NCBI GenBank assembly: GCA_001189215.1
Contig: LFCR01000004.1
Coordinates: 162,244-226,243 of the forward strand
Reading direction: 5' to 3'
DNA length: 64,000 nucleotides
From: Parcubacteria bacterium C7867-008
Lineage (GTDB): Bacteria; Patescibacteriota; Minisyncoccia; Phycocordibacterales; Phycocordibacteraceae
Part shown: piece by piece, positions 2,304 through 55,183 of the stretch
Layout of the letters: each line of letters starts with the position of its first letter
Position numbering within the stretch: the first letter of the stretch is position 1
Program-made: the position numbers and the translations under genes
Notes under the pieces: generated by a model
What the model saw: the letters and a program-made list of their open reading frames with translations, nothing else
What the model was told of the DNA's origin: nothing
The model's database searches: none

Positions 2304-2419
2304 AAAATTAATGAAGAGTGGTAAGCCAAAAGCTTGCCATTTTTCAGTTATATCCTATTATGAATAAGCGACCAGAGGGGTCGTTTTTAGTTGTTTATTT
2401 TGTTCTGGGGAGAACAGCT

Positions 2420-2962
2420 GTGAAGGATGCGTTGTATAACACCAAAGAAGGCCGGACCCGTCTGCTCGATGAACTGACGGCCATCGGCGCCAAACGTGTC
2501 GAACTCGAACGCAAGCGGGGTGAAAATCGTCAGCATACCGGAAGAGGCCATGCTGATGATGATGAGTGTGGTGACCTCGATAACCTGCTCATCTCCTGTA
2601 TCGCCAGACAGGGTGAGATCCAGGACATCTTCAGTGTGACCGGCGGCAATGTTGCTCCGCCGCCGACCAACACCCTGAGCGTCCAGCTCGGCAGTGTCGT
2701 CACGGTGAGGAGGTTTGCCAACGACAGCGACAACAAAGGGGAACTGTACACGTTCCAACTCGTTGGACACGGCGAGGGCATGGCGACCGGTAACGGAGCC
2801 GGCCTGTCTCCGAAGCTTCCGCTGATCAGCTACACTTGTCCGCAAGGTGAAGCGGTCCTGCGGAAAGAAGTTGGGGACGAAGTCGTCGTCAACGGAAAAG
2901 ATCAGGAGATTGTGGCCATACAGCTCCTGAACACCTATCAGGAGCTGCCAATGGCAGCCTGA
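2420..2962 (+). CDS. GreA/GreB-family (Rnk-like) transcription factor paralog, GC-rich foreign-looking cassette
   Basis: C-terminal pattern G..VTV...D....LVG..E....LSP...LISYTCPQGEAVLRKEVGDEVVV matches the GreA C-terminal FKBP-like domain. GTG start 7 nt after GGGGAG. GC visibly higher than neighbours. The in-frame ORF could start as early as 2318. Confidence 0.55.
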   Translation: MKDALYNTKEGRTRLLDELTAIGAKRVELERKRGENRQHTGRGHADDDECGDLDNLLISCIARQGEIQDIFSVTGGNVAPPPTNTLSVQLGSVVTVRRFANDSDNKGELYTFQLVGHGEGMATGNGAGLSPKLPLISYTCPQGEAVLRKEVGDEVVVNGKDQEIVAIQLLNTYQELPMAA

Positions 2963-8750: not shown

Positions 8751-9709
8751 ACCCGAACGAAACATCATTCCTCAAAAAGCATGGTGACCTCTTACAATCC
8801 GGAGGCGTGTTGCTCGTAGGGTCGGTGTTGCTATCAGGTGCTGCATTCGCCGCACTTTCGTCATTTGATGTAGTACCTGAAGAAGTACAGACGGCTATTG
8901 CCATTAATGCAATTCCCGCACCTAACGCATATGAGAACATTCGTCTCATTGGTGAATCTGCCATTGTGTATGACCTCGTAACAGGCGAGACGCTGTATGC
9001 ACAGGACGCAGATCGCGCACTTCCGCTTGCTTCTATTACCAAACTTCTCACCATGTATGCCGCTACCGGTACCCTTCAGGATGCTTCACCGGTTTCCATA
9101 ACTCCAGAAGCTCTTGCTCAAGAGGGTGAAAGCGGATTTACAGAAGGTGAGACGTTTGCCTTCAAAGACCTTGCACGCCTTACACTCGTTGCATCTTCTA
9201 ATGACGGTGCTGCGGCAATTGCAGACGCTGCAGCGATAAGTAAGAACATGGATGATGCTGAGCTCCTTCAAAGGGCAGCAGCTCTCGCAGGACTAAGTCA
9301 CACACGTGCAGAGAATGCTACTGGTCTAGATATAAGCACCACCGAAGCAGGTGCATACGGTTCAGCACGTGATGTTGCTACTCTTGCCGGGAAGTTGCTC
9401 GCAAAAGCACCAGCGATAGCCGGTAGTACCGTTGCACGATCTATTACCGTTCGCTCACAAGACGGTACCGTACACACCCTTCCTAATACCAACCAAGATG
9501 TAGTGCATGTGTCAGGTATCTTACTTTCAAAGACAGGGTACACCGATCTGGCAGGTGGCAATCTTGTCGTGATTTATGATGCGGGATTCGGACATCCGGT
9601 GGCCGTTGTAGTACTTGGCTCAAGCAAACAAGGTCGATTCATTGATGTAGAGAATCTGATACGCGCTACGGGGGCGCACTTTGCAGGCGTAAGCGATAGT
9701 TCTATCTAA
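8747..9709 (+). CDS. D-alanyl-D-alanine carboxypeptidase (serine-type, PBP5-like)
   Basis: SITKLL (SxxK), SSND (SxN) and KTGYT (KTG) motifs. Signal/TM at N-terminus. Confidence 0.75.
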   Translation: MNPNETSFLKKHGDLLQSGGVLLVGSVLLSGAAFAALSSFDVVPEEVQTAIAINAIPAPNAYENIRLIGESAIVYDLVTGETLYAQDADRALPLASITKLLTMYAATGTLQDASPVSITPEALAQEGESGFTEGETFAFKDLARLTLVASSNDGAAAIADAAAISKNMDDAELLQRAAALAGLSHTRAENATGLDISTTEAGAYGSARDVATLAGKLLAKAPAIAGSTVARSITVRSQDGTVHTLPNTNQDVVHVSGILLSKTGYTDLAGGNLVVIYDAGFGHPVAVVVLGSSKQGRFIDVENLIRATGAHFAGVSDSSI

Positions 9710-9710
9710 T

Positions 9711-10775
9711 ATGATTATCTTCGACGCAGCCCGTGTACTCATCCCATTTGTCATCTCGTTCGCCGTAGGTATAGCGGCAGCACCCCTTCTTACGCACTAT
9801 CTATATAAGTACAAGGCGTGGAAGAAGAAAGGGGGGAAAGGGAAGGGTATGGGAGATGATACCGGCACTCCACTCTTTGATGGTCTCCATAAAGAACGGG
9901 AAGTCTCAACACCACGCATGGGTGGCATCTTGGTCTGGGGAACGGTGCTCGCAACCGTACTTGGCCTTGCCATTCTTGGGTGGCTCGTACCTGAACCATT
10001 TGCTGCATTAGACTTTGTTAATCGTGGACAGACCTGGCTACCACTCTTTGCCCTTATCGTAGGAGGTCTTGCCGGTCTTGCTGATGATGTTCTTGAGGTA
10101 ACAAAGAGTGCTGGAGGTCTTTCCCTTAAGTGGCGTCTCCTTATTGTTGCGACCTTTGGTCTCTTTGCTGGTTGGTGGTTCTACGCAAAGCTCGGTGTAT
10201 CTGCAGTTGGTCTGCCGTTCGTTGGTGCGATACCGCTTGGTCTCTTCTTTATTCCATTCTTCGTGATAGTGGTACTCGCTATTTATGCGAGTGGTGTGAT
10301 TGATGGTATTGATGGCCTGGCTGGAGGCATCTTTGCCATTATCTTTATGGCGTATGCTGCTATCGCCTTTGCACAGAACCAGGTAGCACTTGCGGCACTT
10401 GCTGCCAGTATCTCTGGGGCAACCTTTGCCTTCCTTTGGTTTAATATTCCGCCTGCTCGCTTCTATCTTTCAGAGACCGGTAGCATGGCACTCACTATGA
10501 CCCTTGCCGTTATAGCGTTCTCGGCAGACGTACTTGGTGATGGTGTTGGTGTTGCCGTGCTACCAATCATTGCCTTTCCTCTTTTCATAACCGTGGTAAC
10601 AAGCATGCTTCAGGTATTCTTCAAGAAAGTATTCAAACGAAAGCTTTTCCACATTGCACCTATTCATCATCACTTTGAAGTTCTTGGGTGGCCTGCGTAT
10701 AAGGTGACGATGCGATATTGGGTTATTACCATTATCGCGAGTATATTTGGTATTGCTATCGCATTACTTAAGTAG
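9711..10775 (+). CDS. mraY: phospho-N-acetylmuramoyl-pentapeptide transferase
   Basis: Polytopic. TPRMGG motif. Adjacent to ftsW and murG. Confidence 0.85.
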   Translation: MIIFDAARVLIPFVISFAVGIAAAPLLTHYLYKYKAWKKKGGKGKGMGDDTGTPLFDGLHKEREVSTPRMGGILVWGTVLATVLGLAILGWLVPEPFAALDFVNRGQTWLPLFALIVGGLAGLADDVLEVTKSAGGLSLKWRLLIVATFGLFAGWWFYAKLGVSAVGLPFVGAIPLGLFFIPFFVIVVLAIYASGVIDGIDGLAGGIFAIIFMAYAAIAFAQNQVALAALAASISGATFAFLWFNIPPARFYLSETGSMALTMTLAVIAFSADVLGDGVGVAVLPIIAFPLFITVVTSMLQVFFKKVFKRKLFHIAPIHHHFEVLGWPAYKVTMRYWVITIIASIFGIAIALLK

Positions 10776-25640: not shown

Positions 25641-25865
25641 CCATGATCTGCTATGGCATACTCTAATACTTTTGGATAGGAATTTTCATGTCCACCAGCC
25701 GGAGACGGCGTCCATATTGACTCATTAGGAATTTACTGACAGGCTCTTTTTAGATACCCAGTAGTGAGCAGCTGTATGTGCCTGATGTTGTTCAGACGTA
25801 TACAGCTGCTTAAGGCAGCTACTGTAAGGATGTTCCTTACGGTGCACTCCTCAAGGGAGAGCGAG

Positions 25866-26336
25866 ATGAAACGACCGATTACCCTTACCCGTGGACAGCT
25901 GACGGGAATGATCTCAGCCCAGAACGCGGTCTCGTACATGCTCCTAGACACCCAAGATGGGAAAGTCGTGGGAGCCACCCGGAGACAGGTCTGCTGGGTA
26001 GAGCTAAAGATCAGACGCTTTGACGACGTCGCCATGGACCAGAGCGTCCATCACAAACATGTGATGCGCGGCACGATGGCGTATCAGGAACCCGACGGCA
26101 CGTCCATCGAGTTTCGGGTCCTTTCCATCTACACCACCCAGAATCCAACCGGAAAAGGACGGCGTCACAACTGTCCAACGAGTCTGCGGGTTCGAATCAC
26201 CTCACCCTTCGGCAAGCCGGTGGAACGAGGTTTCGAAGCGGGAATGGTCGAAATTTTCAGGACCGGACGCAACTACGAACAGCATCTCGCTGAAGTCCGG
26301 GACATGAGACCCACACCCGAACCAGATAGCTATTAG
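25866..26336 (+). CDS. 156-aa GC-rich protein of unknown function
   Basis: SD AAGGGAGAG before the ATG (MKRPITLTRGQL). GC-rich codons. Terminator 110 nt downstream. Confidence 0.5.
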   Translation: MKRPITLTRGQLTGMISAQNAVSYMLLDTQDGKVVGATRRQVCWVELKIRRFDDVAMDQSVHHKHVMRGTMAYQEPDGTSIEFRVLSIYTTQNPTGKGRRHNCPTSLRVRITSPFGKPVERGFEAGMVEIFRTGRNYEQHLAEVRDMRPTPEPDSY

Positions 26337-29700: not shown

Positions 29701-29778
29701 AAGTATGTGATACTGTGTGTCCGGAACCCGGAATGTGCGATTCCGCGGTACTTCTTTCAAACCGAATAGGTGTTTGTG

Positions 29779-30999
29779 ATGGAAAAGATACTGAACTGGA
29801 TGAAGTTGGCACCCTGCCTACTCATCCTCGCTCTGACGGTCCTTGTGGCCACAGGCGCTCAGGCCAAGGACCTCGGTCCCAATGGCCTGACCAACGCCTG
29901 CACCATCGGGCTGCGGACGCAACTGAACCTCTCCGAGGAACAGGCGCGACAACTGCCCGACGGCTTCGCCGGGAAATACCTCGGCTACGACTTCACGCTC
30001 GGCAAGACACCACCCACCACGTTGTGGGGGTTCTGCGAGATCCTCGTCAAAGATGGGAGATTCTCGCAGGCCAACGTCGGACAGACTTCCGAGCCTGCTC
30101 CGACTCCGGAACCTGCAGCTGCCCTTGAGGCTGCTGCACCGGCTGCCGACCCGCCTGCTCCGGCACCTGAGGTGAAAGCCCCAGCTGCTGAAGCGAAGAG
30201 TGGTGGGGTGACCGTCGAGCTCGAACGGCGTGATCCGGCTCCCGTCTACGGGAAGCCAAACATCTTCGACAAGATGTGGTTTGCCACGCGGGACTTCTTC
30301 GGGTGGGCACGCAACGTGATCGTCAAGCACGAGGTGGTCAGTTCGCTGATTGCCACTCTGATCGCGGTTGCGATCGTGATCATGCTGCTCGCTCTTCGGC
30401 GACCTACGGCACAGTCCGACAATGACGAGCCCGAACCACAAGAAGACAAAGCTGATGGGCAATCCGGACCGATTCCGGCGCGCATCAGCGCTCCAGGCAG
30501 GTTCGCTGGCTTCAGCTACGATGACCTGGCCAGCTATGGCAAACGGTTCAAGAACGTCAAGCCGAAGGGCTTGTTCGAATCCTACGAAAGTCACCTGCGC
30601 CGTCTTCAAGCTGCCGGCCTCGACGTCTCTCACCTCCTCGACGAGGAAGAAGACGGAGATGATGATGCCGACGAGCAACCGCAGGACGATCCCGCTCCCA
30701 CCGCGAGCGACGCTGATCAAGCGCCTCCGGAAGAACCCGGACCCGCAGCACCTGCCACCGCGGCAGATGTACCCGACATGGTAGTGCCACCACTTCCGAT
30801 CGGGCGCCGCTCCAACCTTCCGCTGAGCTCTGAAGATGCAAAAGCGATCAAGGAGCTGAAGGCTATCCATGCCCAGCTGCAAGGCGAGAGCGACCGAGCC
30901 TACACAAACCGTCTTCGGGCGTTGGGTGTCGGCACCGGCCCTCTGGTGGGTACCCACGTCGCGGAACAAATTTCCGACGCCAAGACCTACCGTCCATGA
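29779..30999 (+). CDS. 406-aa GC-rich exported bitopic protein (signal peptide, Pro/Ala-rich linker, one TM, acidic cytoplasmic tail)
   Basis: AGGTG 7 nt before the ATG (MEKILNWMKL). The ORF-track start at 29770 is GTG. GC-rich throughout. Terminator follows. Confidence 0.5.
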   Translation: MEKILNWMKLAPCLLILALTVLVATGAQAKDLGPNGLTNACTIGLRTQLNLSEEQARQLPDGFAGKYLGYDFTLGKTPPTTLWGFCEILVKDGRFSQANVGQTSEPAPTPEPAAALEAAAPAADPPAPAPEVKAPAAEAKSGGVTVELERRDPAPVYGKPNIFDKMWFATRDFFGWARNVIVKHEVVSSLIATLIAVAIVIMLLALRRPTAQSDNDEPEPQEDKADGQSGPIPARISAPGRFAGFSYDDLASYGKRFKNVKPKGLFESYESHLRRLQAAGLDVSHLLDEEEDGDDDADEQPQDDPAPTASDADQAPPEEPGPAAPATAADVPDMVVPPLPIGRRSNLPLSSEDAKAIKELKAIHAQLQGESDRAYTNRLRALGVGTGPLVGTHVAEQISDAKTYRP

Positions 31000-35124: not shown

Positions 35125-35586
35125 ATGAAAATTATGCGTTTGAGTGCCACCGATGGCTCGCCATGTGGGGTGATCAATCTGGCTTTCGTACTGGACAACG
35201 TCGATCTGCAAGACGGTCAATACGTCCTGAGTATGCGAGATGAATACCCTTTGGCCTACGTTTCCTACAAAGACGGGACTAAGGCCCATGGTGAAATCTT
35301 CGGGAGTTTCTCCCTGCGCGATGCCCGCGCTCGTCTGCGACCCACGGTTCATAAGGACGGCAGACACATGGTGGAGATCGGGGTCGAAAGCCCGAATGTT
35401 CCTGACTTCCTCGCCCTGTCTGCCAAGATCTATGGTGAGGTTCTTCGGATCCCGATCAGGACCTTCGAGAAGGACCAGGAATTCCCCGGAAACCTAACCT
35501 TCATCGACGGTATCCGGAACGCTCTGGGTCGACTCCGTCGCTACATCGCGGAGCAACTCAAACGCATGCGGCTCATCAGAGCCTAA
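35125..35586 (+). CDS. 153-aa GC-rich protein of unknown function
   Basis: SD AAAGGA 8 nt before the ATG. GC-rich. Own terminator. Confidence 0.5.
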   Translation: MKIMRLSATDGSPCGVINLAFVLDNVDLQDGQYVLSMRDEYPLAYVSYKDGTKAHGEIFGSFSLRDARARLRPTVHKDGRHMVEIGVESPNVPDFLALSAKIYGEVLRIPIRTFEKDQEFPGNLTFIDGIRNALGRLRRYIAEQLKRMRLIRA

Positions 35587-42340: not shown

Positions 42341-42406
42341 TCCTTTGACTTTCAGTGCACGGGCACTATGATACCGACAGGTACCCACAGTAATGGAGAG
42401 TGAAGG

Positions 42407-42778
42407 GTGACCAGGTTCATTTCGTTCAATGAAGTCGCTCGATACGAGATTCAAGTTGGCATCAAACACGCAAGCACAAGGCATCGTCTGTTATTTAGCT
42501 TGGACGAAGACAAAGTCCGCAGAATCGCGAACCGAGCCGGCAAGAACATGCACGACAGGCACTGGGAGGCCAGACGTGCAATACCGGAAGCGATTGAAGC
42601 AGTACTGGCACCTGAATCACGCCGTGGTGCATATGCAACCGCATATAGCTCCGCCGTGTCGAAGATCTTCAGTGATAGGAGCGCAAAAGCGCGAAGACAG
42701 GCTGCACAGCGGCGACGGGAAGCCAACATGCCTGTTCGACCCGCACAACAACTCCACTTCCGATTCGTTCTGGACTGA
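42407..42778 (+). CDS. 123-aa basic GC-rich protein of unknown function (GTG start)
   Basis: GGAGAG upstream of GTG. Arg-rich. Terminator follows. Confidence 0.4.
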   Translation: MTRFISFNEVARYEIQVGIKHASTRHRLLFSLDEDKVRRIANRAGKNMHDRHWEARRAIPEAIEAVLAPESRRGAYATAYSSAVSKIFSDRSAKARRQAAQRRREANMPVRPAQQLHFRFVLD

Positions 42779-42847: not shown

Positions 42848-43663
42848 ATGCAGAAGTATGTAGTGCTAAATAAGAAGATTGGGCAAACCCCACTTGAAAC
42901 CATTCAGGCGTGGAAGATGTCTAATCCTACCTATATAGATACCCCAGCAACCTATGCTGGTCGCCTGGACCCTATGGCAAGTGGTCTCCTATTGGTTCTT
43001 TTTGGAGATGAGTGCAAGAAGAAAGATGCATACCTAGGACTCGATAAGGAGTACGAAGTAGAGATTGTTCTTGACCTCTCTAGTGACACAGGAGATGTGC
43101 TCGGTCTTATCTCTGAGACTGATACATACACCACTCCGTCATCTGTAGAAGTACAGGCTTCATGTGCAAAAGAGATTGGTGCACACACCCTTCCCTACCC
43201 CTCATACTCTTCCAAAACTGTAGACGGAGTTCCTCTGTTTCTCCATGCACTGCGAGACACATTGAACACCATTGATATCCCTACCCATACAGAAACTATT
43301 CATTCCATAAAACTGAAATCTGTTTCAACTATCTCAAGCGTAGACTTACATAAACGAATTAAGGAAATACTTACTGCTGCACCTCATTCAGATGAACCAT
43401 CTAAAGAACTGGGCGCTGATTTCCGGATTCATGCCGTACGGAATTCTTGGGGTACGGTATTCGTTAAACCTGAAAGATCGTTCACAGTGATTCATTTGCG
43501 TGTGGTTTGTGGATCAGGTGCATATATGCGTACTCTCGCTGAACGCATTGGCACTTCATTGGGTACACACGCCCTAGCACTTTCTATACATCGCACTAGT
43601 GTTGGTATCTATAAAAAGATTGGCCCCCTAGCATTTTGGACAAAGAACTTCAAACTTCCCTAG
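42848..43663 (+). CDS. truB: tRNA pseudouridine(55) synthase
   Basis: GRLDPMASGLL catalytic motif. Confidence 0.85.
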   Translation: MQKYVVLNKKIGQTPLETIQAWKMSNPTYIDTPATYAGRLDPMASGLLLVLFGDECKKKDAYLGLDKEYEVEIVLDLSSDTGDVLGLISETDTYTTPSSVEVQASCAKEIGAHTLPYPSYSSKTVDGVPLFLHALRDTLNTIDIPTHTETIHSIKLKSVSTISSVDLHKRIKEILTAAPHSDEPSKELGADFRIHAVRNSWGTVFVKPERSFTVIHLRVVCGSGAYMRTLAERIGTSLGTHALALSIHRTSVGIYKKIGPLAFWTKNFKLP

Positions 43664-43728
43664 TATTGACAATTTAAGTAATTGTTGTTAATATAGTTTC
43701 AGAATATTCCTCCTGTAGAAAGAACCGT

Positions 43729-43884
43729 CATGAGCATAGTGCCTCAAGGAATGGTTTCTCTCGACGACTGGCTGACGCGATTCATTATCGCAATTGGCTG
43801 CATCGCCCTCGTGTGGACTCCAATATATCTATGGGGTGCATACAAAGAATATCGAGAGCGTGTTCGAAAGAGACCCTCGAAGAA
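43729..43884 (+). CDS. 51-aa single-TM micro-protein (below ORF-track cutoff)
   Basis: MSIVPQGMVSLDDWLTRFIIAIGCIALVWTPIYLWGAYKEYRERVRKRPSKKL. Own terminator. Confidence 0.35.
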
Positions 43885-43900
43885 ACTCTAACCGCCCACC

Positions 43901-43938
43901 GCCCCCGGACATCTGTCTGGGGGTTATCGTTTGTCTTT
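43901..43938 (+). terminator. intrinsic terminator
   Basis: cccccgga-catctg-tctggggg then ttatcgtttgtctttt. Confidence 0.6.
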
Positions 43939-43965
43939 TGACCAACCATACAAATAATTGTATAT
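43937..43965 (+). promoter_or_regulatory. sigma70-like promoter: TTGACC, 17 nt spacer, TATATT
   Basis: Consensus-like -35 and -10 with ideal spacing. SD GAGGA 8 nt before ATG 44004. Confidence 0.55.
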
Positions 43966-44003
43966 TCACAGCGGACGTTTTTCACAACCAGAGGATATGG
44001 TCC

Positions 44004-45875
44004 ATGAGACTCATAGCAATCATCGTGATGCTTCTGTCCATGGTCAACGTGGATGTGAGCTGGGCAAAAGACAAGCCAATCGGCGGCCTCTGTGGAGGCG
44101 CCTATGTCGGCTCCAACACCTGCGTATGGAATGAGGACACTCATGAGTGGACCGAAACATACGTGGGCTGGGACAACTGGGAGTGGCAGACTATCGCCAA
44201 CCAGCCAGAACTTGCTCCGGCTATCCGTCGGATGCATCTCCCCCGGCAGGTGCCGGTTGAGAAGAGATACTCGATCAGTCTGAATACCAAAGCGTGTTTG
44301 AAGCCGGAGTATCATCTCCTTCTCGGCGCTGCGGTTATGCCTTCGAACCGAAAGCCAATTGCGACCACGCGTCGTGTGGTGATCATAAATGTTGAAGGCG
44401 GAGACTGGCCTGAAGAATCCCGCATCTGGCCGCATCTGGGTATCAATTACGTGGGGACGGTCGCAAAACAGGAAGGCTTCGACGTCGTTCTGTACGACGA
44501 GCTTATTCAGAGGCGCAAGCCGCTGGAAGAACTTATTCGTCCCGGCGACATCGTCGGCCTCAGCCTTGTCAGCACCGGCATCGAACGTGGCGTCCTCGTC
44601 GCGCAAGAAGCTAAGGCACTTGGTGCCCGCTACGTTATCGCTGGAAACGACTCGGCGATGTTCCGTGCCCGGCAGCTCCTCGAGCTTCCTGACCGGCCCA
44701 TCGACGCCGTCTTCACCAGCAACAGCGTCGTGACACTCCGGGAGTTCTTCCGAAATGCAGACGCGGTGATCGCAGGTTCGATGCAGATCGAGCAAGTGGC
44801 AACCGCACCTGAACAAGTGCCGTACGTCTCCAACGAACACGCAGGTGTTGCGGTGGAGCGTAAGGCATACACCGAAGAAGACTTCTTCTTGGTCCCAAAC
44901 CTCTCACTCTTCAGCGACGAGTACTGGGAGCTGGTTCGAACTGCGTATCGTTCGCAGTTCGGACACAAGCACCAAGACCCTGCCAACGTCCGTAATGCCA
45001 TCGCGCTTCTTGCGCAAGGCTGTGGACGCGCCGGAATGGGCGATATCTGCGACTACTGCACCATCCGCCATGTGGCGAATGTGGTGCAGCCGCCCCCGGG
45101 GTATCTAGAGGAGACTCTCGCCACCTATCGGGCACAGGGTGTGAATACCTTCTTCAATGTGACGGACTCAGCCTTTGAGATGGGAGTGCTCGCAAAACAG
45201 CTCGAAGAAGCTGGTCCGGTGGACACACTCATCATCTACGGTAGAGCGCAGGCAATCGCGCAGCGTCCAGACCTCCTTGAACGGTGGAAAGGATGTGTGA
45301 CCGAACGTCTGCTCATCAATTGCGGTATGGACTCAGGAAGTGAGCGTATCCTGCAAACCGGCATCAATAAGTCCGGAAGTAAGGTGGGTTCAAGGCTTGA
45401 AGAGAACTATCGGGCGCTGGCCAACATCAAGGCGGCGGGCCCCAAGGTTCACTTGCACTTCTCTGTTATCTTCGGTTCACCGGGAGAGACGCATGAGTCG
45501 TGCGAGGCTACACTGCATTTCGTGCAGCATGCGATCGACACGCTCGGTGAGCAGCTCGACGTCGTCGAGGGCGATATTTTCTGGGTTAACTTCGGAGCAC
45601 CGTGCAGTGAGATCTTCACGGACTACAAAGCAGCACAGAAGCGCGCTCTGCTTGCTGGGAAGAGTATATCCCGGGACGAGTGGCACCAGTACTTCGCCCG
45701 TCACGCTGATGAGCTTGCCGTGCCGGAGGAATCCCAGCACGCCTGGTACACCTTCTTTACGAGCATCACCATCAAAGAGGCGTGGGCGTACAATGCTCAG
45801 GTCCGTGGCATGCTCGAACAACTACCTGGCCACATCACCGGTCGGAACTATGCGTTCAAGCCACCTACGGTGTGA
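44004..45875 (+). CDS. B12-binding-domain radical-SAM-like protein with N-terminal hydrophobic/Trp-Cys-rich extension
   Basis: Rossmann-like B12-binding region (RRVVIINVEGGDWPE..GDIVGLSLVS). Cys cluster CGRAGMGDICDYC (CX8CX2C). GC-rich. Start set after the internal terminator and promoter, not at 43794. Confidence 0.55.
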   Translation: MRLIAIIVMLLSMVNVDVSWAKDKPIGGLCGGAYVGSNTCVWNEDTHEWTETYVGWDNWEWQTIANQPELAPAIRRMHLPRQVPVEKRYSISLNTKACLKPEYHLLLGAAVMPSNRKPIATTRRVVIINVEGGDWPEESRIWPHLGINYVGTVAKQEGFDVVLYDELIQRRKPLEELIRPGDIVGLSLVSTGIERGVLVAQEAKALGARYVIAGNDSAMFRARQLLELPDRPIDAVFTSNSVVTLREFFRNADAVIAGSMQIEQVATAPEQVPYVSNEHAGVAVERKAYTEEDFFLVPNLSLFSDEYWELVRTAYRSQFGHKHQDPANVRNAIALLAQGCGRAGMGDICDYCTIRHVANVVQPPPGYLEETLATYRAQGVNTFFNVTDSAFEMGVLAKQLEEAGPVDTLIIYGRAQAIAQRPDLLERWKGCVTERLLINCGMDSGSERILQTGINKSGSKVGSRLEENYRALANIKAAGPKVHLHFSVIFGSPGETHESCEATLHFVQHAIDTLGEQLDVVEGDIFWVNFGAPCSEIFTDYKAAQKRALLAGKSISRDEWHQYFARHADELAVPEESQHAWYTFFTSITIKEAWAYNAQVRGMLEQLPGHITGRNYAFKPPTV

Positions 45876-45898
45876 TTCGATTCTCTATTAGTTCCTTG

Positions 45899-45932
45899 TC
45901 CCGCGTCTACATGGCGCGGGATTTTCTTTTTA
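45899..45932 (+). terminator. intrinsic terminator
   Basis: tcccgcg-tctacatgg-cgcggga then ttttctttttat. Confidence 0.65.
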
Positions 45933-45940
45933 TACTGAAC

Positions 45941-45967
45941 GCAAAAACCGCCTTTCGGCGGTTTTGC
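45941..45967 (-). terminator. hairpin terminating tRNA-Glu transcription
   Basis: gcaaaaaccgcc-tttc-ggcggttttgc immediately 3' of the tRNA on the - strand. Confidence 0.55.
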
Positions 45968-45972
45968 TCGTG

Positions 45973-46044
45973 TGACCCTACGGGGAATCGAACCCCGATT
46001 TCCTGCGTGAGAGGCGGGCGTCCTAACCGTTAGACGATAGGGCC
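45973..46044 (-). tRNA. tRNA-Glu (anticodon CTC), no encoded CCA
   Basis: Cloverleaf GGCCCTA..TCGATTCC..TAGGGTCA. Anticodon loop ctCTCac. One C-A mismatch in the anticodon stem. Confidence 0.75.
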
Positions 46045-46070
46045 ATGCCTATGGTTATACCAGAGATGAG

Positions 46071-46108
46071 GGTACAAGAAAAGCGACGCGCTCCCGGGCG
46101 CGTCGCTT
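46071..46108 (-). terminator. intrinsic terminator
   Basis: aagcgacgcgc-tcccgg-gcgcgtcgctt with a T-run on the - strand. Confidence 0.65.
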
Positions 46109-46128
46109 ACATCTCCTCAAATTGGTGT

Positions 46129-46437
46129 CTAGTTAATCTTGACCACCTGGATGGGCGATACAAAGTACGGGAATCCTTCGAGCCGTAAGGTCCAGGTAGA
46201 AGTTACTTCCAGGATCTTGTGGTTGGTATCTGGCTTTCCCTCGAACGCCACCAGATCCCCAACAGCAAGAGCCTTTCTAATAACGGCGTTATGCCGCTTC
46301 TCATCCGAGGAATCCCCAATGAAGTGTTTGGGAACATTTGCTGCACGCACAACGCTCGTGTGCACTTTCAAACCGAAATTGTGCGATCGACCATTGTCTC
46401 TTCGTACTCTTCGTGCGCCAGAACTCCAGCCTGCCAT
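46129..46437 (-). CDS. 102-aa protein of unknown function, moderately GC-rich
   Basis: AGGGGAG before the ATG (MAGWSSGARR). Terminator downstream. Confidence 0.45.
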   Translation of the reverse strand: MAGWSSGARRVRRDNGRSHNFGLKVHTSVVRAANVPKHFIGDSSDEKRHNAVIRKALAVGDLVAFEGKPDTNHKILEVTSTWTLRLEGFPYFVSPIQVVKIN

Positions 46438-46500
46438 TGTGAAATTCTCCCCTACTAACCTAAAGCGCACTATACTCCCCTTTTTCTGTTTGTATAGAAG

Positions 46501-47793
46501 TTATCTACTCTTCCATTGCAGGCTCTGACGAACCAACAGTTCCTGATCTTCAGGTGCACTTAGGAGTGCTTCAGTGATGCGTTCCGTACGAATAGACTGA
46601 GATCCCTTAATGAGGACTGCATCACCCTTACCAATGAGTTCAGTGAGGGCGGTAGCAGCTTCCTCTGACGTACTAAATTGTTGAATGGAGGTTTCGGACA
46701 TTCCTGCCTCTAGTGCTGCTGCTGCAATGCCACGTGCACGAATACCCACCGTCACAAGAAGATCTGTCTGGCGAGCAGCTAGGGTGCCAATGCGCTCATG
46801 CTCTTCGTGTGAGTAGCGACCAAGTTCGAGCATATCTCCGAGTATGGCAATACGGCGTAGGTTTTGTTCACCTGCAACGAGATTAAGCGATGCAAGTGCT
46901 TCAACGGTTGCCGTTGGTGATGAGTTATAGGAATCATCGATTAGGACAGCACCATCCTTACCACTTAAAATACGTGCACGACCAGGAGGTGGTGCAAAGG
47001 CCTTCAATCCTTCAAGCGCGTCTTCAACAGAAAGCCCGAGCGCTACCGCTGTTGCAACTGCCGCAGCTGGTGCATAGAGTGCTGGTTGTCCGACGGTGTC
47101 ATATACCGTAAGTGGAGATTCTTCGTCTGAGACTTTTAGTATCGCTTGCATACCTGACACACGACCACCTTCTACAAACACCTTTGGGTGTGTGATCCGA
47201 ACATCCGCTTGTTCGCCCACGCCAAACGTAAACGTACGCGCCGTGAGACGCGCACTCATAGCAATAGCATATTCATCTTCTGCATTCATGATGAGTGGCA
47301 TGCCTTCATCAAGTGCATACGCTGGATAGAACTCTTCTTCACGTACGGCTGCTGGTGTTGGATACGCTTCAACATGTACGGGCACTTCAGGAAGCTTTGT
47401 TACCACCACCGCGTCTGGTAGTGCGATCTTCATAATCTTAGCCAAATCACCAGGACGGTCGGCTCCCACCTCAAGTACCAGAAGATTTGGATAGTGGGTT
47501 GGGAAAAACCGTACTGCAAATGCTTCACCAAATACTCTAAGCCATGCAGCGGGGCTTGCCCACGGACTACCCACACCAATTATCGTGAGAGGAACACCAA
47601 ATTCACTGTTAAAACTCTTTTCACTTCTGCGGACATAATAGCCAGTTGAAAGAGCTGCAGCCACCGCATCTTTCGTAGAGGTCTTTCCCACACTTCCCGT
47701 CACCATCACAATCTTCGGCTTGTACTTCCGCACTATGCCAGCAGCAAGCCAGCCAAGTACTAGTGCGAAGAGGGTGCGGAGAAGTGATTTCAT
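46501..47793 (-). CDS. murF: UDP-MurNAc-tripeptide D-Ala-D-Ala ligase
   Basis: VTGSVGKTSTKD P-loop. Mur ligase domains. Confidence 0.85.
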   Translation of the reverse strand: MKSLLRTLFALVLGWLAAGIVRKYKPKIVMVTGSVGKTSTKDAVAAALSTGYYVRRSEKSFNSEFGVPLTIIGVGSPWASPAAWLRVFGEAFAVRFFPTHYPNLLVLEVGADRPGDLAKIMKIALPDAVVVTKLPEVPVHVEAYPTPAAVREEEFYPAYALDEGMPLIMNAEDEYAIAMSARLTARTFTFGVGEQADVRITHPKVFVEGGRVSGMQAILKVSDEESPLTVYDTVGQPALYAPAAAVATAVALGLSVEDALEGLKAFAPPPGRARILSGKDGAVLIDDSYNSSPTATVEALASLNLVAGEQNLRRIAILGDMLELGRYSHEEHERIGTLAARQTDLLVTVGIRARGIAAAALEAGMSETSIQQFSTSEEAATALTELIGKGDAVLIKGSQSIRTERITEALLSAPEDQELLVRQSLQWKSR

Positions 47794-54475: not shown

Positions 54476-55183
54476 TTATTGAGGGTTGGCGAAGGCCAGC
54501 AGCTTCCGCTCGTCGAGGTTTCGAACGACGAAAGTCATATCGTCGGGACCAATCGGTCCCGTGCCGGCAATCTTCTTCACGATAATATTCCATTTCCCTT
54601 CGTAGGGTCGGAGAATGCCGATACAGTCTTCATCCTTCCCTGTGTCGAGAAAGAAGTACGTCGGCTCGTCCGTCGTGTTGATCGAGAGAGGCAGGTCGCC
54701 GGTCAGAGCATGCAATGCCATCGCTTCGGCTTGCGCGAGCGTGAGCGTATAGCCGAGAGCTCGCACCGTCTGTCCAAACGGCATATGAAAGGAAAGCTCT
54801 CGAAACCCGGGAAGCTGTTCGGCGATCTGACGAAGATTGGATCTCTCCGTCAGACGCAACTTTGTGCCGATGCAGACGTTTGAACTCGACTGGCGTCCAG
54901 AGAACTGGGTTGCGGAAATCGATCGCTGCAGCCATGAATCTCCCACGCAGCATTCGGCGGTGTCCTTCTCCACGGTGTCAGGAATATAGAAACATCCCTG
55001 AGTCGTGAAGCGAGACGGTTCACGATATTTCTCGATCAGCCGTTCGAGCTCCACATCGAAGCCGTTCTTCCTTCGGCGAATGTGGTCCCCTTGGCGTTTG
55101 TTCAGGCCCTTGAGAAGTTTGGTCAGGGTGTCATGAAGCTCGCGCTTCGTGTTTCCGGACGCATTAACCTTACGTTCAAGCAT
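54476..55183 (-). CDS. 235-aa GC-rich protein of unknown function
   Basis: GGAG 9 nt before the ATG. GC-rich. Terminator downstream. Structured leader upstream. Confidence 0.5.
   Translation of the reverse strand: MLERKVNASGNTKRELHDTLTKLLKGLNKRQGDHIRRRKNGFDVELERLIEKYREPSRFTTQGCFYIPDTVEKDTAECCVGDSWLQRSISATQFSGRQSSSNVCIGTKLRLTERSNLRQIAEQLPGFRELSFHMPFGQTVRALGYTLTLAQAEAMALHALTGDLPLSINTTDEPTYFFLDTGKDEDCIGILRPYEGKWNIIVKKIAGTGPIGPDDMTFVVRNLDERKLLAFANPQ

Follow-up and report, generated by a model that had tools for sequence, protein, structure and literature searches.

The locus between truB and murF is probably a closely packed series of independent transcription units in a variable slot around tRNA-Glu, and not a mobile cassette. 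Its main unit would encode a working radical SAM enzyme of class-B architecture, belonging to a family that is conserved across the CPR/Patescibacteria. The order of genes at the locus is truB, a 53-aa ORF, the radical SAM gene (623 aa), the tRNA gene, a 102-aa ORF and murF. The block is organized as four separate transcription units rather than one (Table 1; "window" denotes the whole 64-kb stretch of DNA that was analysed, from Parcubacteria bacterium C7867-008). Fold, invariant residues, family distribution, synteny and composition pattern are treated as findings.

Table 1 Features of the truB-murF locus, with positions in the window
Feature	Position	Strand	Remarks
Sigma70-like promoter of the small ORF	43666..43694	+	TTGACA-17-TAATAT, TG-extended -10; 10/12 matches
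53-aa orphan ORF	43730..43891	+	One hydrophobic helix (FIIAIGCIALVWTPIYLWG) between a short N-tail and a basic C-tail
Intrinsic terminator hairpin of the small ORF	43901..43924	+	-19.8 kcal/mol, z -2.95
Sigma70-like promoter of the radical SAM gene	43938..43966	+	TTGACC-17-TATATT; 10/12 matches
Short 5' UTR of the radical SAM gene	43967..44003	+	Shine-Dalgarno GAGGA
ORF of the 623-aa radical SAM protein, class-B architecture	44004..45875	+	AB203_01245, annotated 'hypothetical protein'
N-terminal family-specific domain	44004..44369 (aa 1 to about 110-122)	+	Signal-anchor-like helix, then small alpha/beta domain
Rossmann/B12-binding-like domain	approx. aa 123-260
Radical SAM barrel	approx. aa 325-525
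CX8CX2C loop (C340, C349, C352)	45021..45059	+	Presumed [4Fe-4S]/SAM cluster ligands
C-terminal domain	approx. aa 530-623		Helical, Trp-rich
Intrinsic terminator of the radical SAM gene	45898..45922	+	-19.0 kcal/mol, z -6.2
Hairpin downstream of tRNA-Glu	45943..45966	-	AAAACCGCC-GAAA-GGCGGTTTT; z -3.7; kept in C7867-007
tRNA-Glu (anticodon CTC)	45972..46044	-	ARAGORN; Rfam 58 bits
Intrinsic terminator after the 102-aa ORF	46081..46108	-	-22.9 kcal/mol, z -3.65
102-aa orphan ORF, downstream of murF	46129..46437	-	AB203_01255

The main unit is predicted to consist of a promoter, a short leader, the 623-aa gene and a terminator. An initial annotation of this DNA had described a near-consensus promoter ahead of this gene, four terminators in the block, a tRNA-Glu(CTC) on the opposite strand with its own hairpin and a 102-aa minus-strand ORF with its own terminator, all of which are present. 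Its statement that this was the only block with an explicit promoter did not hold, because the whole window contains 15 promoter-like sites with at least 10/12 matches and the promoter of the small ORF is of equal quality. Within the 5-kb region, 9 terminator-like and 10 promoter-like sites were counted, compared with 3.7 ± 1.9 and 4.4 ± 2.3, respectively, in shuffles. A palindrome, ATACAAATAATTGTAT, extends over positions 43948-43963 in the spacer and the -10 element of the radical SAM gene promoter. Between and including the -35 element and the Shine-Dalgarno sequence, this region matches the sister genome C7867-007 almost base for base; it differs only in the part of the spacer that directly follows the -35 hexamer. 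The same genome carries TTGACA-17-TATAAT at the equivalent place of the small-ORF promoter, and the terminator hairpin of the small ORF is kept there. A riboswitch was not indicated in the 5' UTR of the radical SAM gene, which folded no better than shuffled sequences (z -0.65) and had no match in Rfam. The tRNA-Glu(CTC) is identical in C7867-007 and adjoins murF in every examined relative with a detected tRNA at this position; the hairpin downstream of it is likely the tRNA terminator, possibly acting in both directions.

The domain content of the 623-aa ORF, a Rossmann/B12-binding-like domain together with a radical SAM barrel, supports its assignment as class-B-like. Homologues favoured the ATG at 44004 as start over an upstream TTG. 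Both domains, as proposed initially for the core of the protein, were recovered in the AlphaFold2 model (pLDDT 92.4). The Rossmann part has five predicted strands (residues 124-130, 160-165, 183-188, 210-214 and 235-237), as in the published description of class I B12-dependent radical SAM enzymes (PMC12931638), and the barrel shows the partial TIM-barrel radical SAM fold. Profile searches of 44004-45875 pointed to the same families with scores under the gathering cut-offs, namely Pfam B12-binding with an E value of 6.6e-6 and Radical_SAM (PF04055) with 19.7 bits (E 1e-3; cut-off 29.5); precomputed PF04055 matches are present in several homologues. The best NCBIfam matches were all models of B12-dependent radical SAM proteins or methylthiotransferases, headed by TIGR04013 with 21.3 bits against a cut-off of 251 and all others lower, so that the protein falls short of the equivalog and subfamily cut-offs of the curated class-B families. 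Searches of PDB sequences with profiles of 20 and 96 sequences detected no chain and gave nothing under E 0.3.

In place of the canonical CX3CX2C motif the protein has C340-X8-C349-X2-C352, located after the predicted barrel strand 331-334. All three cysteines are invariant in 96 of 96 aligned family members. They are among 50 invariant columns, which also include the FGSPGET motif and NCGMDSG, and with C500 they are the only invariant cysteines of the family; the Rossmann domain has none. The CX8CX2C loop, an AGNDS motif replacing the usual GGxH of B12-binding domains and an N-terminal domain of 110 aa that contains a signal-anchor-like helix are distinctive to the family, which thereby offers radical SAM enzymology a class-B scaffold with a naturally occurring CX8CX2C cluster loop. 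The unusual cysteine spacing, the sub-threshold Radical_SAM score in Pfam and the unusual N-terminus would also fit a descendant without catalysis or with a different one, such as a sensor or structural protein that binds Fe-S or corrinoid and no longer forms a 5'-deoxyadenosyl radical, and TsrM is a class-B scaffold that works without radical SAM cleavage (PMC12931638). Such a descendant is unlikely, however, considering that besides the three cysteines the equivalents of the SAM-binding elements, TDSA.E, GMDSG and FGSPGET, are invariant or nearly so in the 96 sequences. Moreover, bona fide radical SAM clusters include extended CXnCX2C loops, CX8CX2C among them (PMC9477430), and the canonical spacing is therefore not strictly required.

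The top fold match was AprD4 (PDB 6FD2), the radical SAM enzyme that acts as 1,2-diol dehydratase in apramycin biosynthesis, which has the same layout of an N-terminal Rossmann-like domain akin to the B12-binding domain, a radical SAM barrel and a C-terminal domain. AprD4 has about 455 aa and belongs to an aminoglycoside gene cluster, whereas the 623-aa protein stands alone and differs by its extra N-terminal domain and the CX8CX2C loop; sequence similarity between the two was undetectable (PDB profile search E 1.8). The class I cobalamin-dependent enzymes MgmA/QCMT (9CCB), TsrM (6WTE), CysS (9N1B), TokK (7KDX) and OxsB (5UL2) share the five-strand Rossmann domain N-terminal to the barrel, and the core motifs G.PGET and G.(D/E)SG of the clade of B12-dependent radical SAM proteins and methylthiotransferases are present as well. 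All NCBIfam scores are far under the family cut-offs (at most 21 bits vs 251-650), and class I enzymes have the canonical CXXXCXXC (PMC12931638), whereas the family described here has CX8CX2C, GNDS for GGxH and no pathway context. RimO (4JC0) and MiaB (7MJV) resemble the protein in combining a flavodoxin-like N-terminal domain with a following radical SAM barrel and in being encoded by stand-alone housekeeping genes; the only sequence-level traces in the PDB were to RimO and TM_1862, in the G.PGET region. Methylthiotransferases possess an auxiliary cluster on three N-domain cysteines and a TRAM domain at the C-terminus, whereas the 623-aa protein has no conserved cysteine in residues 123-260 and no TRAM match in Pfam. 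The next tier in the representative-library search was a group annotated 'radical SAM protein', about 500 aa long and with a loop of the CX6CX2C type, for instance WP_125824533.1 from plasmid p1 of Streptomyces sp. W1SF4 (26% identity over residues 142-604, E 4e-27). This group shares PH.G, G(N/D)D.A, YR.QFGH.H, GC...C.YC(S/T)I, F.V.DS and G.PGE with the family, but has no N-terminal domain, a cluster loop shorter by two residues and a distribution outside the CPR; the Streptomyces gene is flanked by an XRE regulator and a LeuE-type exporter.

To our knowledge, corrinoid synthesis is usually absent from CPR genomes, and the family offers a way to see if a B12-binding-like domain really takes up cobalamin in cells regarded as incapable of its synthesis. 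No sequence signature is universal for cobalamin binding. The replacement of GGxH by GNDS makes cobalamin binding uncertain, and no Rfam match to a cobalamin riboswitch was obtained upstream of the gene. Both observations, like the usual lack of corrinoid synthesis, count against a cobalamin-dependent methyltransferase (true class B). The Pfam B12-binding match argues for such an enzyme, which is possible but doubtful. The best fold match, AprD4, is cobalamin-free, yet similarity networks group it with B12-dependent radical SAM enzymes (PMC12931638).

From the features of the protein we infer its catalysis, cofactor, membrane location and substrate class. C340, C349 and C352 would hold a [4Fe-4S] cluster which binds SAM and cleaves it reductively to a 5'-deoxyadenosyl radical. 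The radical would then take a hydrogen atom from a substrate placed between the barrel and the N-terminal Rossmann-like domain, where the latter may either carry cobalamin in base-off form for methyl transfer, like TsrM, TokK and QCMT, or function without cobalamin, like AprD4. The hydrophobic helix at aa 3-21 (Kyte-Doolittle mean 2.08) suggests that the enzyme works at the membrane; the N-terminal 110-aa domain had no relative in a PDB fold search. The gene is monocistronic and lacks a conserved partner gene, which suggests a substrate found in every cell, such as a macromolecule or a constituent of the membrane or envelope, rather than an intermediate of a dedicated pathway. An N-terminus that looks like a signal peptide is unusual in Fe-S enzymes, and its role may differ from that of a membrane anchor.

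The family of the 623-aa protein comprises at least 212 clusters at 90% identity, annotated only as hypothetical. Every taxon-named cluster belongs to the Patescibacteria, with members in Paceibacteria, Microgenomates, Berkelbacteria and Uhrbacteria, and pairwise identities range from 43 to 88% across classes. The search of the representative library yielded 31 matches at E < 1e-30. To judge from these sequences, the gene is a real member of a radical SAM family conserved across the CPR/Patescibacteria and without prior characterization; no description of the family was found in the literature on Patescibacteria and radical SAM enzymes. Homologues with 75-78% identity were located in unrelated contexts, each with its own promoter, analogous to that in the window (TTGAC-17-TGTATATT), Shine-Dalgarno sequence and terminator. 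Across about 50 loci, no gene recurred as neighbour except a divergently transcribed TrmB-like regulator in 11 of them, of which the window contains no homologue. Metabolism in the CPR/Patescibacteria is minimal, and the majority of the lineage-specific proteins that they conserve are without known function. A family that remains at least 43% identical across several CPR classes, is transcribed from its own predicted promoter, is covered by no curated model and has no solved relative detectable by sequence is therefore a concrete, clonable target for the chemistry that these ultra-small cells still do themselves. A more specific proposal is that this CPR/Patescibacteria-restricted family, with its CX8CX2C loop and membrane-anchoring N-terminal domain, is under strong purifying selection for a lineage-specific modification of the membrane or envelope (e.g. 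of scavenged lipids or cell-surface material) and moves between or within genomes as a promoter-gene-terminator unit. Such mobility, if true, could account for the variable location, although the proposal as a whole is speculative and somewhat unlikely.

The block had been interpreted initially as a foreign island integrated at the tRNA gene, with the small ORF, the radical SAM gene and the 102-aa ORF as horizontally acquired cargo. The gene is indeed GC-rich, as claimed (GC 0.569), and its GC3 of 0.663 exceeds the mean of about 0.44 for the window's other ORFs; the window is GC-rich at other places as well, e.g. at 30-31 kb (GC 0.615). Expression-linked codon bias is an unlikely cause, because the ribosomal protein genes L27, L9 and L21 have a GC3 of only 0.44-0.50. 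Comparison of the truB-murF junction gave a divided result. The content of the tRNA-Glu/truB slot varies between relatives: in RYN_391, the next relative, it is occupied by a 187-aa ORF and a Nudix-like gene instead of the radical SAM gene, and more distant relatives have other genes there, the replacement extending to L013, L014 and L016. The absence from the RYN_391 slot and the occurrence of the closest homologues in other contexts mean that relocation or lateral transfer among CPR bacteria has taken place, and they leave some probability to a foreign origin. In C7867-007, by contrast, the gene order is the same, promoter and 5' UTR are near-identical, and the radical SAM protein is 88% identical, in line with its neighbours (72-97%), which was counted for inheritance at the locus. 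Neither the ORF list nor Pfam contained an integrase, recombinase or transposase in the block, no direct repeat of tRNA-Glu or its 3' end was found at the borders, and 45972-46044 belongs to no repeat family. Neither PADLOC nor PHROGs gave defence or phage signals, tblastn found no phage match, and the only plasmid match was the distant Streptomyces relative. Furthermore, the tRNA separates the radical SAM gene from the 102-aa ORF, and the two belong to different transcription units. The GC3 of the radical SAM gene exceeded that of the flanking ORFs in 27 of 31 genomes (Wilcoxon p 1.6e-6) and tracked it (r 0.66), indicating that the composition is a trait of the gene family and does not point to recent acquisition here. 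An acquired island is thus quite unlikely, and for annotation practice the case illustrates that high GC3 beside a tRNA gene is insufficient for an island call.

The two small ORFs, compared with databases and relatives, appear as fast-evolving orphans. The first had been described as a 51-aa TM peptide with its own terminator; the hydrophobic helix (Kyte-Doolittle mean 1.95 in a 19-residue window) and the terminator were confirmed and the length corrected to 53 aa. Nothing in Pfam, NCBIfam, PADLOC or PHROGs passed the threshold, and the 65-aa ORF at the corresponding place in C7867-007 shares the architecture but shows no detectable similarity. Its position immediately upstream of a class-B-like radical SAM gene is reminiscent of a RiPP-like cassette, in which the 53-aa product would be a precursor peptide modified by the adjacent enzyme; some of the radical SAM enzymes that depend on B12 are RiPP methyltransferases, and rSAM_ocin_1 is among the nearest NCBIfam neighbours of distant relatives. 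This reading is highly improbable and was rejected, given that the small ORF is served by its own promoter and followed by a strong terminator ahead of the radical SAM gene promoter, that even the sister genome, with an 88% identical enzyme, does not conserve the sequence of the small ORF, and that no comparable small ORF lies beside the enzyme in about 50 other loci. In addition, the product has the look of a membrane protein with a single pass and not of a leader-plus-core peptide. The 102-aa ORF matched only itself among 5.8 billion proteins; it shares 29% identity (E 1e-5) with a 101-aa positional counterpart in C7867-007 and no similarity with a 102-aa ORF at the same place in RYN_391. 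More distant relatives lack this ORF, and the tRNA there follows about 40-55 bp after murF.

The large ORF encodes a 623-aa protein that matched AB203_01245 of Parcubacteria bacterium C7867-008 at 100% identity, which places the window in a genome of the CPR/Patescibacteria. HMM searches matched it to both families named in the initial annotation, B12-binding (E 6.6e-6; 26.4 bits, cut-off 32.1) and Radical_SAM (E 1e-3; 19.7 bits, cut-off 29.5), each match lying below the Pfam cut-off. NCBIfam returned only faint matches, all of them to models of cobalamin-dependent radical SAM enzymes (B12-rSAMs) or methylthiotransferases, and profile searches with the family yielded no match below E 0.3 among the PDB sequences. 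These comparisons point weakly but consistently to a class-B radical SAM enzyme. The confident AlphaFold2 model, calculated from 96 homologues (pLDDT 92.4, pTM 0.80), argues strongly for a radical SAM class-B fold, and on this structural basis the class-B-like architecture guessed initially, a B12-binding-like domain with a radical SAM barrel, was right. The values listed with the model were 27.0 for AprD4, 26.0 for MgmA/QCMT, 24.1 for TsrM, 23.7 for RimO, 22.7 for CysS, 21.7 for MiaB, 18.3 for TokK and 14.3 for OxsB. The Rossmann part of the modelled protein comprises five strands, the number given for class I B12-rSAMs in the literature (PMC12931638).

A word-index search revealed homologues in at least 212 clusters, and all taxon-named matches were Patescibacteria (CPR), affiliated with Parcubacteria/Paceibacterota, Microgenomates, Berkelbacteria and Uhrbacteria. 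The best 120 of these clusters were 43-88% identical to the 623-aa protein; most covered the full length, while a minority lacked the N-terminal ~110 residues. Homologues are named 'hypothetical protein' or carry a generic COG label in the databases. The fold class is already known; the family itself is uncharacterised and covered by no curated model. Its alignment of 96 sequences contained 50 invariant columns, including the cysteines C340, C349, C352 and C500, H144 in the conserved motif WPHLG, G214-N215-D216 in the conserved motif AGNDS, K322-H323, D388, S389, E392, N439, G441 and the motif FGSPGET.

The family differs from characterised class-B enzymes in the cluster loop, the Rossmann motif and an additional N-terminal domain. 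The cluster loop is CX8CX2C instead of CX3CX2C. Accepted radical SAM clusters with similarly extended loops have been described (PMC9477430). Descent of the family from the radical SAM fold with loss of the radical chemistry appears unlikely. The first element of the family-specific N-terminal domain (residues 1-110) is a hydrophobic helix, whose Kyte-Doolittle mean is 2.08 in a window of 19 residues, followed by an alpha/beta unit that was also modelled confidently (pLDDT 87). A cysteine pair at aa 29-40 (44088-44123) brackets a short inserted loop (GLCGGAYVGSNTCVW) in this domain; in alignments A1 and A6 it was confined to the closest relatives of the C7867 clade, and it could represent a disulfide or a metal site.

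In the mechanism proposed for this enzyme, C340, C349 and C352 would ligate the only [4Fe-4S] cluster, which would bind SAM and cleave it reductively. The 5'-deoxyadenosyl radical would then attack a substrate held where the barrel faces the Rossmann domain. Tentatively, the Rossmann domain may carry base-off cobalamin and the reaction may be a methyl transfer; alternatively, the domain would lack cobalamin, like that of AprD4, and another radical transformation would be catalysed. Because the gene stands alone and is widely conserved in minimal genomes, the substrate is probably one that is ubiquitous in cells, and the N-terminal helix suggests that the enzyme acts at the membrane.

An exhaustive HMM search separated the compact core family from a tier of ~500-aa relatives at roughly 20-26% identity. 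These relatives lack the N-terminal domain and have a CX6CX2C loop. One of them, a 498-aa protein with this loop, is encoded on plasmid p1 of Streptomyces sp. W1SF4 (locus L063, 9929-12120), with an XRE regulator upstream and a LeuE/RhtB-type exporter directly downstream. The pairing with an exporter may hint at a small-molecule product in the non-CPR branch.

The features listed in the initial annotation were present at the locus, and the observation was confirmed with three corrections. The membrane-protein-like small ORF encodes 53 aa, not 51 aa, and it is preceded by a promoter of its own that is equal in quality. The promoter of the radical SAM gene is not the only explicit one, since 15 promoter sites in the window reach at least 10/12 matches. 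All four hairpins of the locus were far more stable than shuffled sequence (z-scores -2.95 to -6.2), and both terminator-like sites (9 vs. 3.7 in shuffles) and promoter-like sites (10 vs. 4.4) were enriched. A palindrome with perfect arms (ATACAA-ATAA-TTGTAT, 43948-43963) overlaps the spacer and the -10 element of the radical SAM gene promoter. It is retained in the sister genome C7867-007, is missing from the promoters of the homologues in loci L017 and L018, and could be an operator.

Features of the truB-murF region (window positions)
Feature	Position	Strand	Remark
truB	42848-43663	+	
promoter-like TTGACA-17-TAATAT	43666-43694	+	for small ORF
53-aa ORF	43730-43891	+	
hairpin terminator	43901-43924	+	
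promoter-like TTGACC-17-TATATT	43938-43966	+	for radical SAM gene
623-aa ORF	44004-45875	+	
terminator	45898-45922	+	
hairpin	~45943-45966	-	
tRNA-Glu(CTC)	45972-46044	-	
terminator	46108-46081	-	
102-aa ORF	46129-46437	-	
murF	46501-47793	-	

The region had been interpreted as an island integrated at the tRNA gene. The block contained no integrase and no phage or defence signal, and the search for tRNA-Glu direct repeats at its borders found none; the locus thus lacks the features typical of integration into a tRNA gene. Comparison of the truB-murF junction spoke against an island in one respect: gene order in C7867-007 was identical (rmuC, yqeY, orf123, truB, small ORF, radical SAM gene, tRNA-Glu, ~100-aa ORF, murF, pbp). 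The radical SAM proteins of the two genomes were 88% identical, a value inside the 72-97% span of the flanking genes. The ~105 nt upstream of the radical SAM gene, which begin at the terminator hairpin and end with the Shine-Dalgarno sequence, were almost identical; the few differing bases lie in the loop of the hairpin and in the part of the spacer next to the -35 element. The DNA of the small ORF was barely alignable. In the other respect the comparison fitted an island, as further loci anchored on murF kept the backbone pbp, murF, tRNA-Glu ... yqeY, rmuC but differed in the slot between tRNA-Glu and truB. In the next relative, RYN_391 (murF 72% identical), no radical SAM gene lies in this slot, which holds a 187-aa ORF and a Nudix-like gene. 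In three genomes of more distant relatives the slot contains a 291-aa ORF, and the locus has neither truB nor a ~100-aa ORF. A tRNA island is improbable. The nearest homologues of the radical SAM gene (78%, 75% and 65-69% identical) reside in neighbourhoods unrelated to the window locus, each with its own promoter of the TTGAC-17-TGTATATT type, Shine-Dalgarno sequence and terminator. Together with the differing slots this indicates that the gene relocates as an independent unit and that the content of the slot beside the tRNA varies. In RYN_391 the 187-aa ORF is overlapped by the gene for a ~199-aa Nudix-box protein (GGVFELGEDPESSARREIREEAG; L010, 9880-10944).

The small ORF and the 65-aa ORF that corresponds to it in C7867-007 both have strong promoters and share an architecture of N-tail, one transmembrane-like helix and basic tail, without detectable sequence similarity. 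The 102-aa ORF matched only itself among 5.8 billion proteins, was 29% identical to its 101-aa counterpart in C7867-007 and showed no relationship to the ORF, likewise of 102 aa, at the equivalent position in RYN_391. Both ORFs behave like rapidly evolving orphans that keep their position, and the data gathered revealed no functional link between either and the enzyme. Between yqeY and truB, a 123-aa ORF (42407-42778, +) with its own promoter-like site (42345-42372) had no match in the family search; its conservation in C7867-007 (67%) and RYN_391 (36%) identifies it as a lineage-specific backbone gene.

GC at third codon positions (GC3) of the radical SAM gene was 0.663, compared to a mean of 0.44 (SD 0.08) for the other ORFs of the window. 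Expression-linked codon bias is an unlikely cause, since GC3 is not raised in ribosomal protein genes (0.44-0.50). The family member exceeded its flanking ORFs in GC3 at 27 of 31 distinct loci (mean excess +0.115, Wilcoxon p 1.6e-6), and its GC3 tracked that of the flanks across these loci (r 0.66). The GC3 anomaly thus characterises the family as a whole and is not evidence for a recent acquisition by the C7867-008 genome. Other GC3-rich ORFs (0.63-0.65) are located at 2360-2962 (+), 25776-26336 (+), 35125-35586 (+) and 54476-55183 (-); one contains a GreA/GreB C-terminal domain and the rest had no Pfam match. Strong promoters directly precede some of them (2334-2361; 55343-55316, 11/12 matches), and GC3-rich genes with individual promoters and without assigned function may form a class in this genome. 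The GC peak at 30-31 kb (0.615) is due to a 409-aa ORF (29770-30999, +) whose Pro-, Ala- and Glu-rich product contains low-complexity sequence as well as hydrophobic segments; the antisense 411-aa ORF looks spurious.

Neighbouring ORFs were clustered across ~50 loci after removal of shadow ORFs. No biosynthetic partner, precursor peptide or transporter recurred with the CPR family in these loci, and a role of the enzyme in a RiPP cassette is highly improbable. A single neighbour recurred, a ~260-aa regulator of the TrmB family at 11 loci (L007, L008, L022-L027, L044, L050 and L061), divergently transcribed 74-465 bp upstream of the radical SAM homologue; the 64-kb window contains no TrmB homologue. 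At most of the 11 loci, a palindrome of the TGTTGTCGGAAAAAGTCAACA type lies between the two genes, beside a TTGACA promoter, and this arrangement suggests that expression of the enzyme is ligand-controlled in some lineages. DUF1761 genes lie near the radical SAM homologue in both L002 and L004. The CPR contig L002 also carries adjacent genes for ThsA-Macro and ThsB-TIR (9139-10502), a Thoeris-like defence pair that adjoins a LexA-like gene and a DUF2188 gene.
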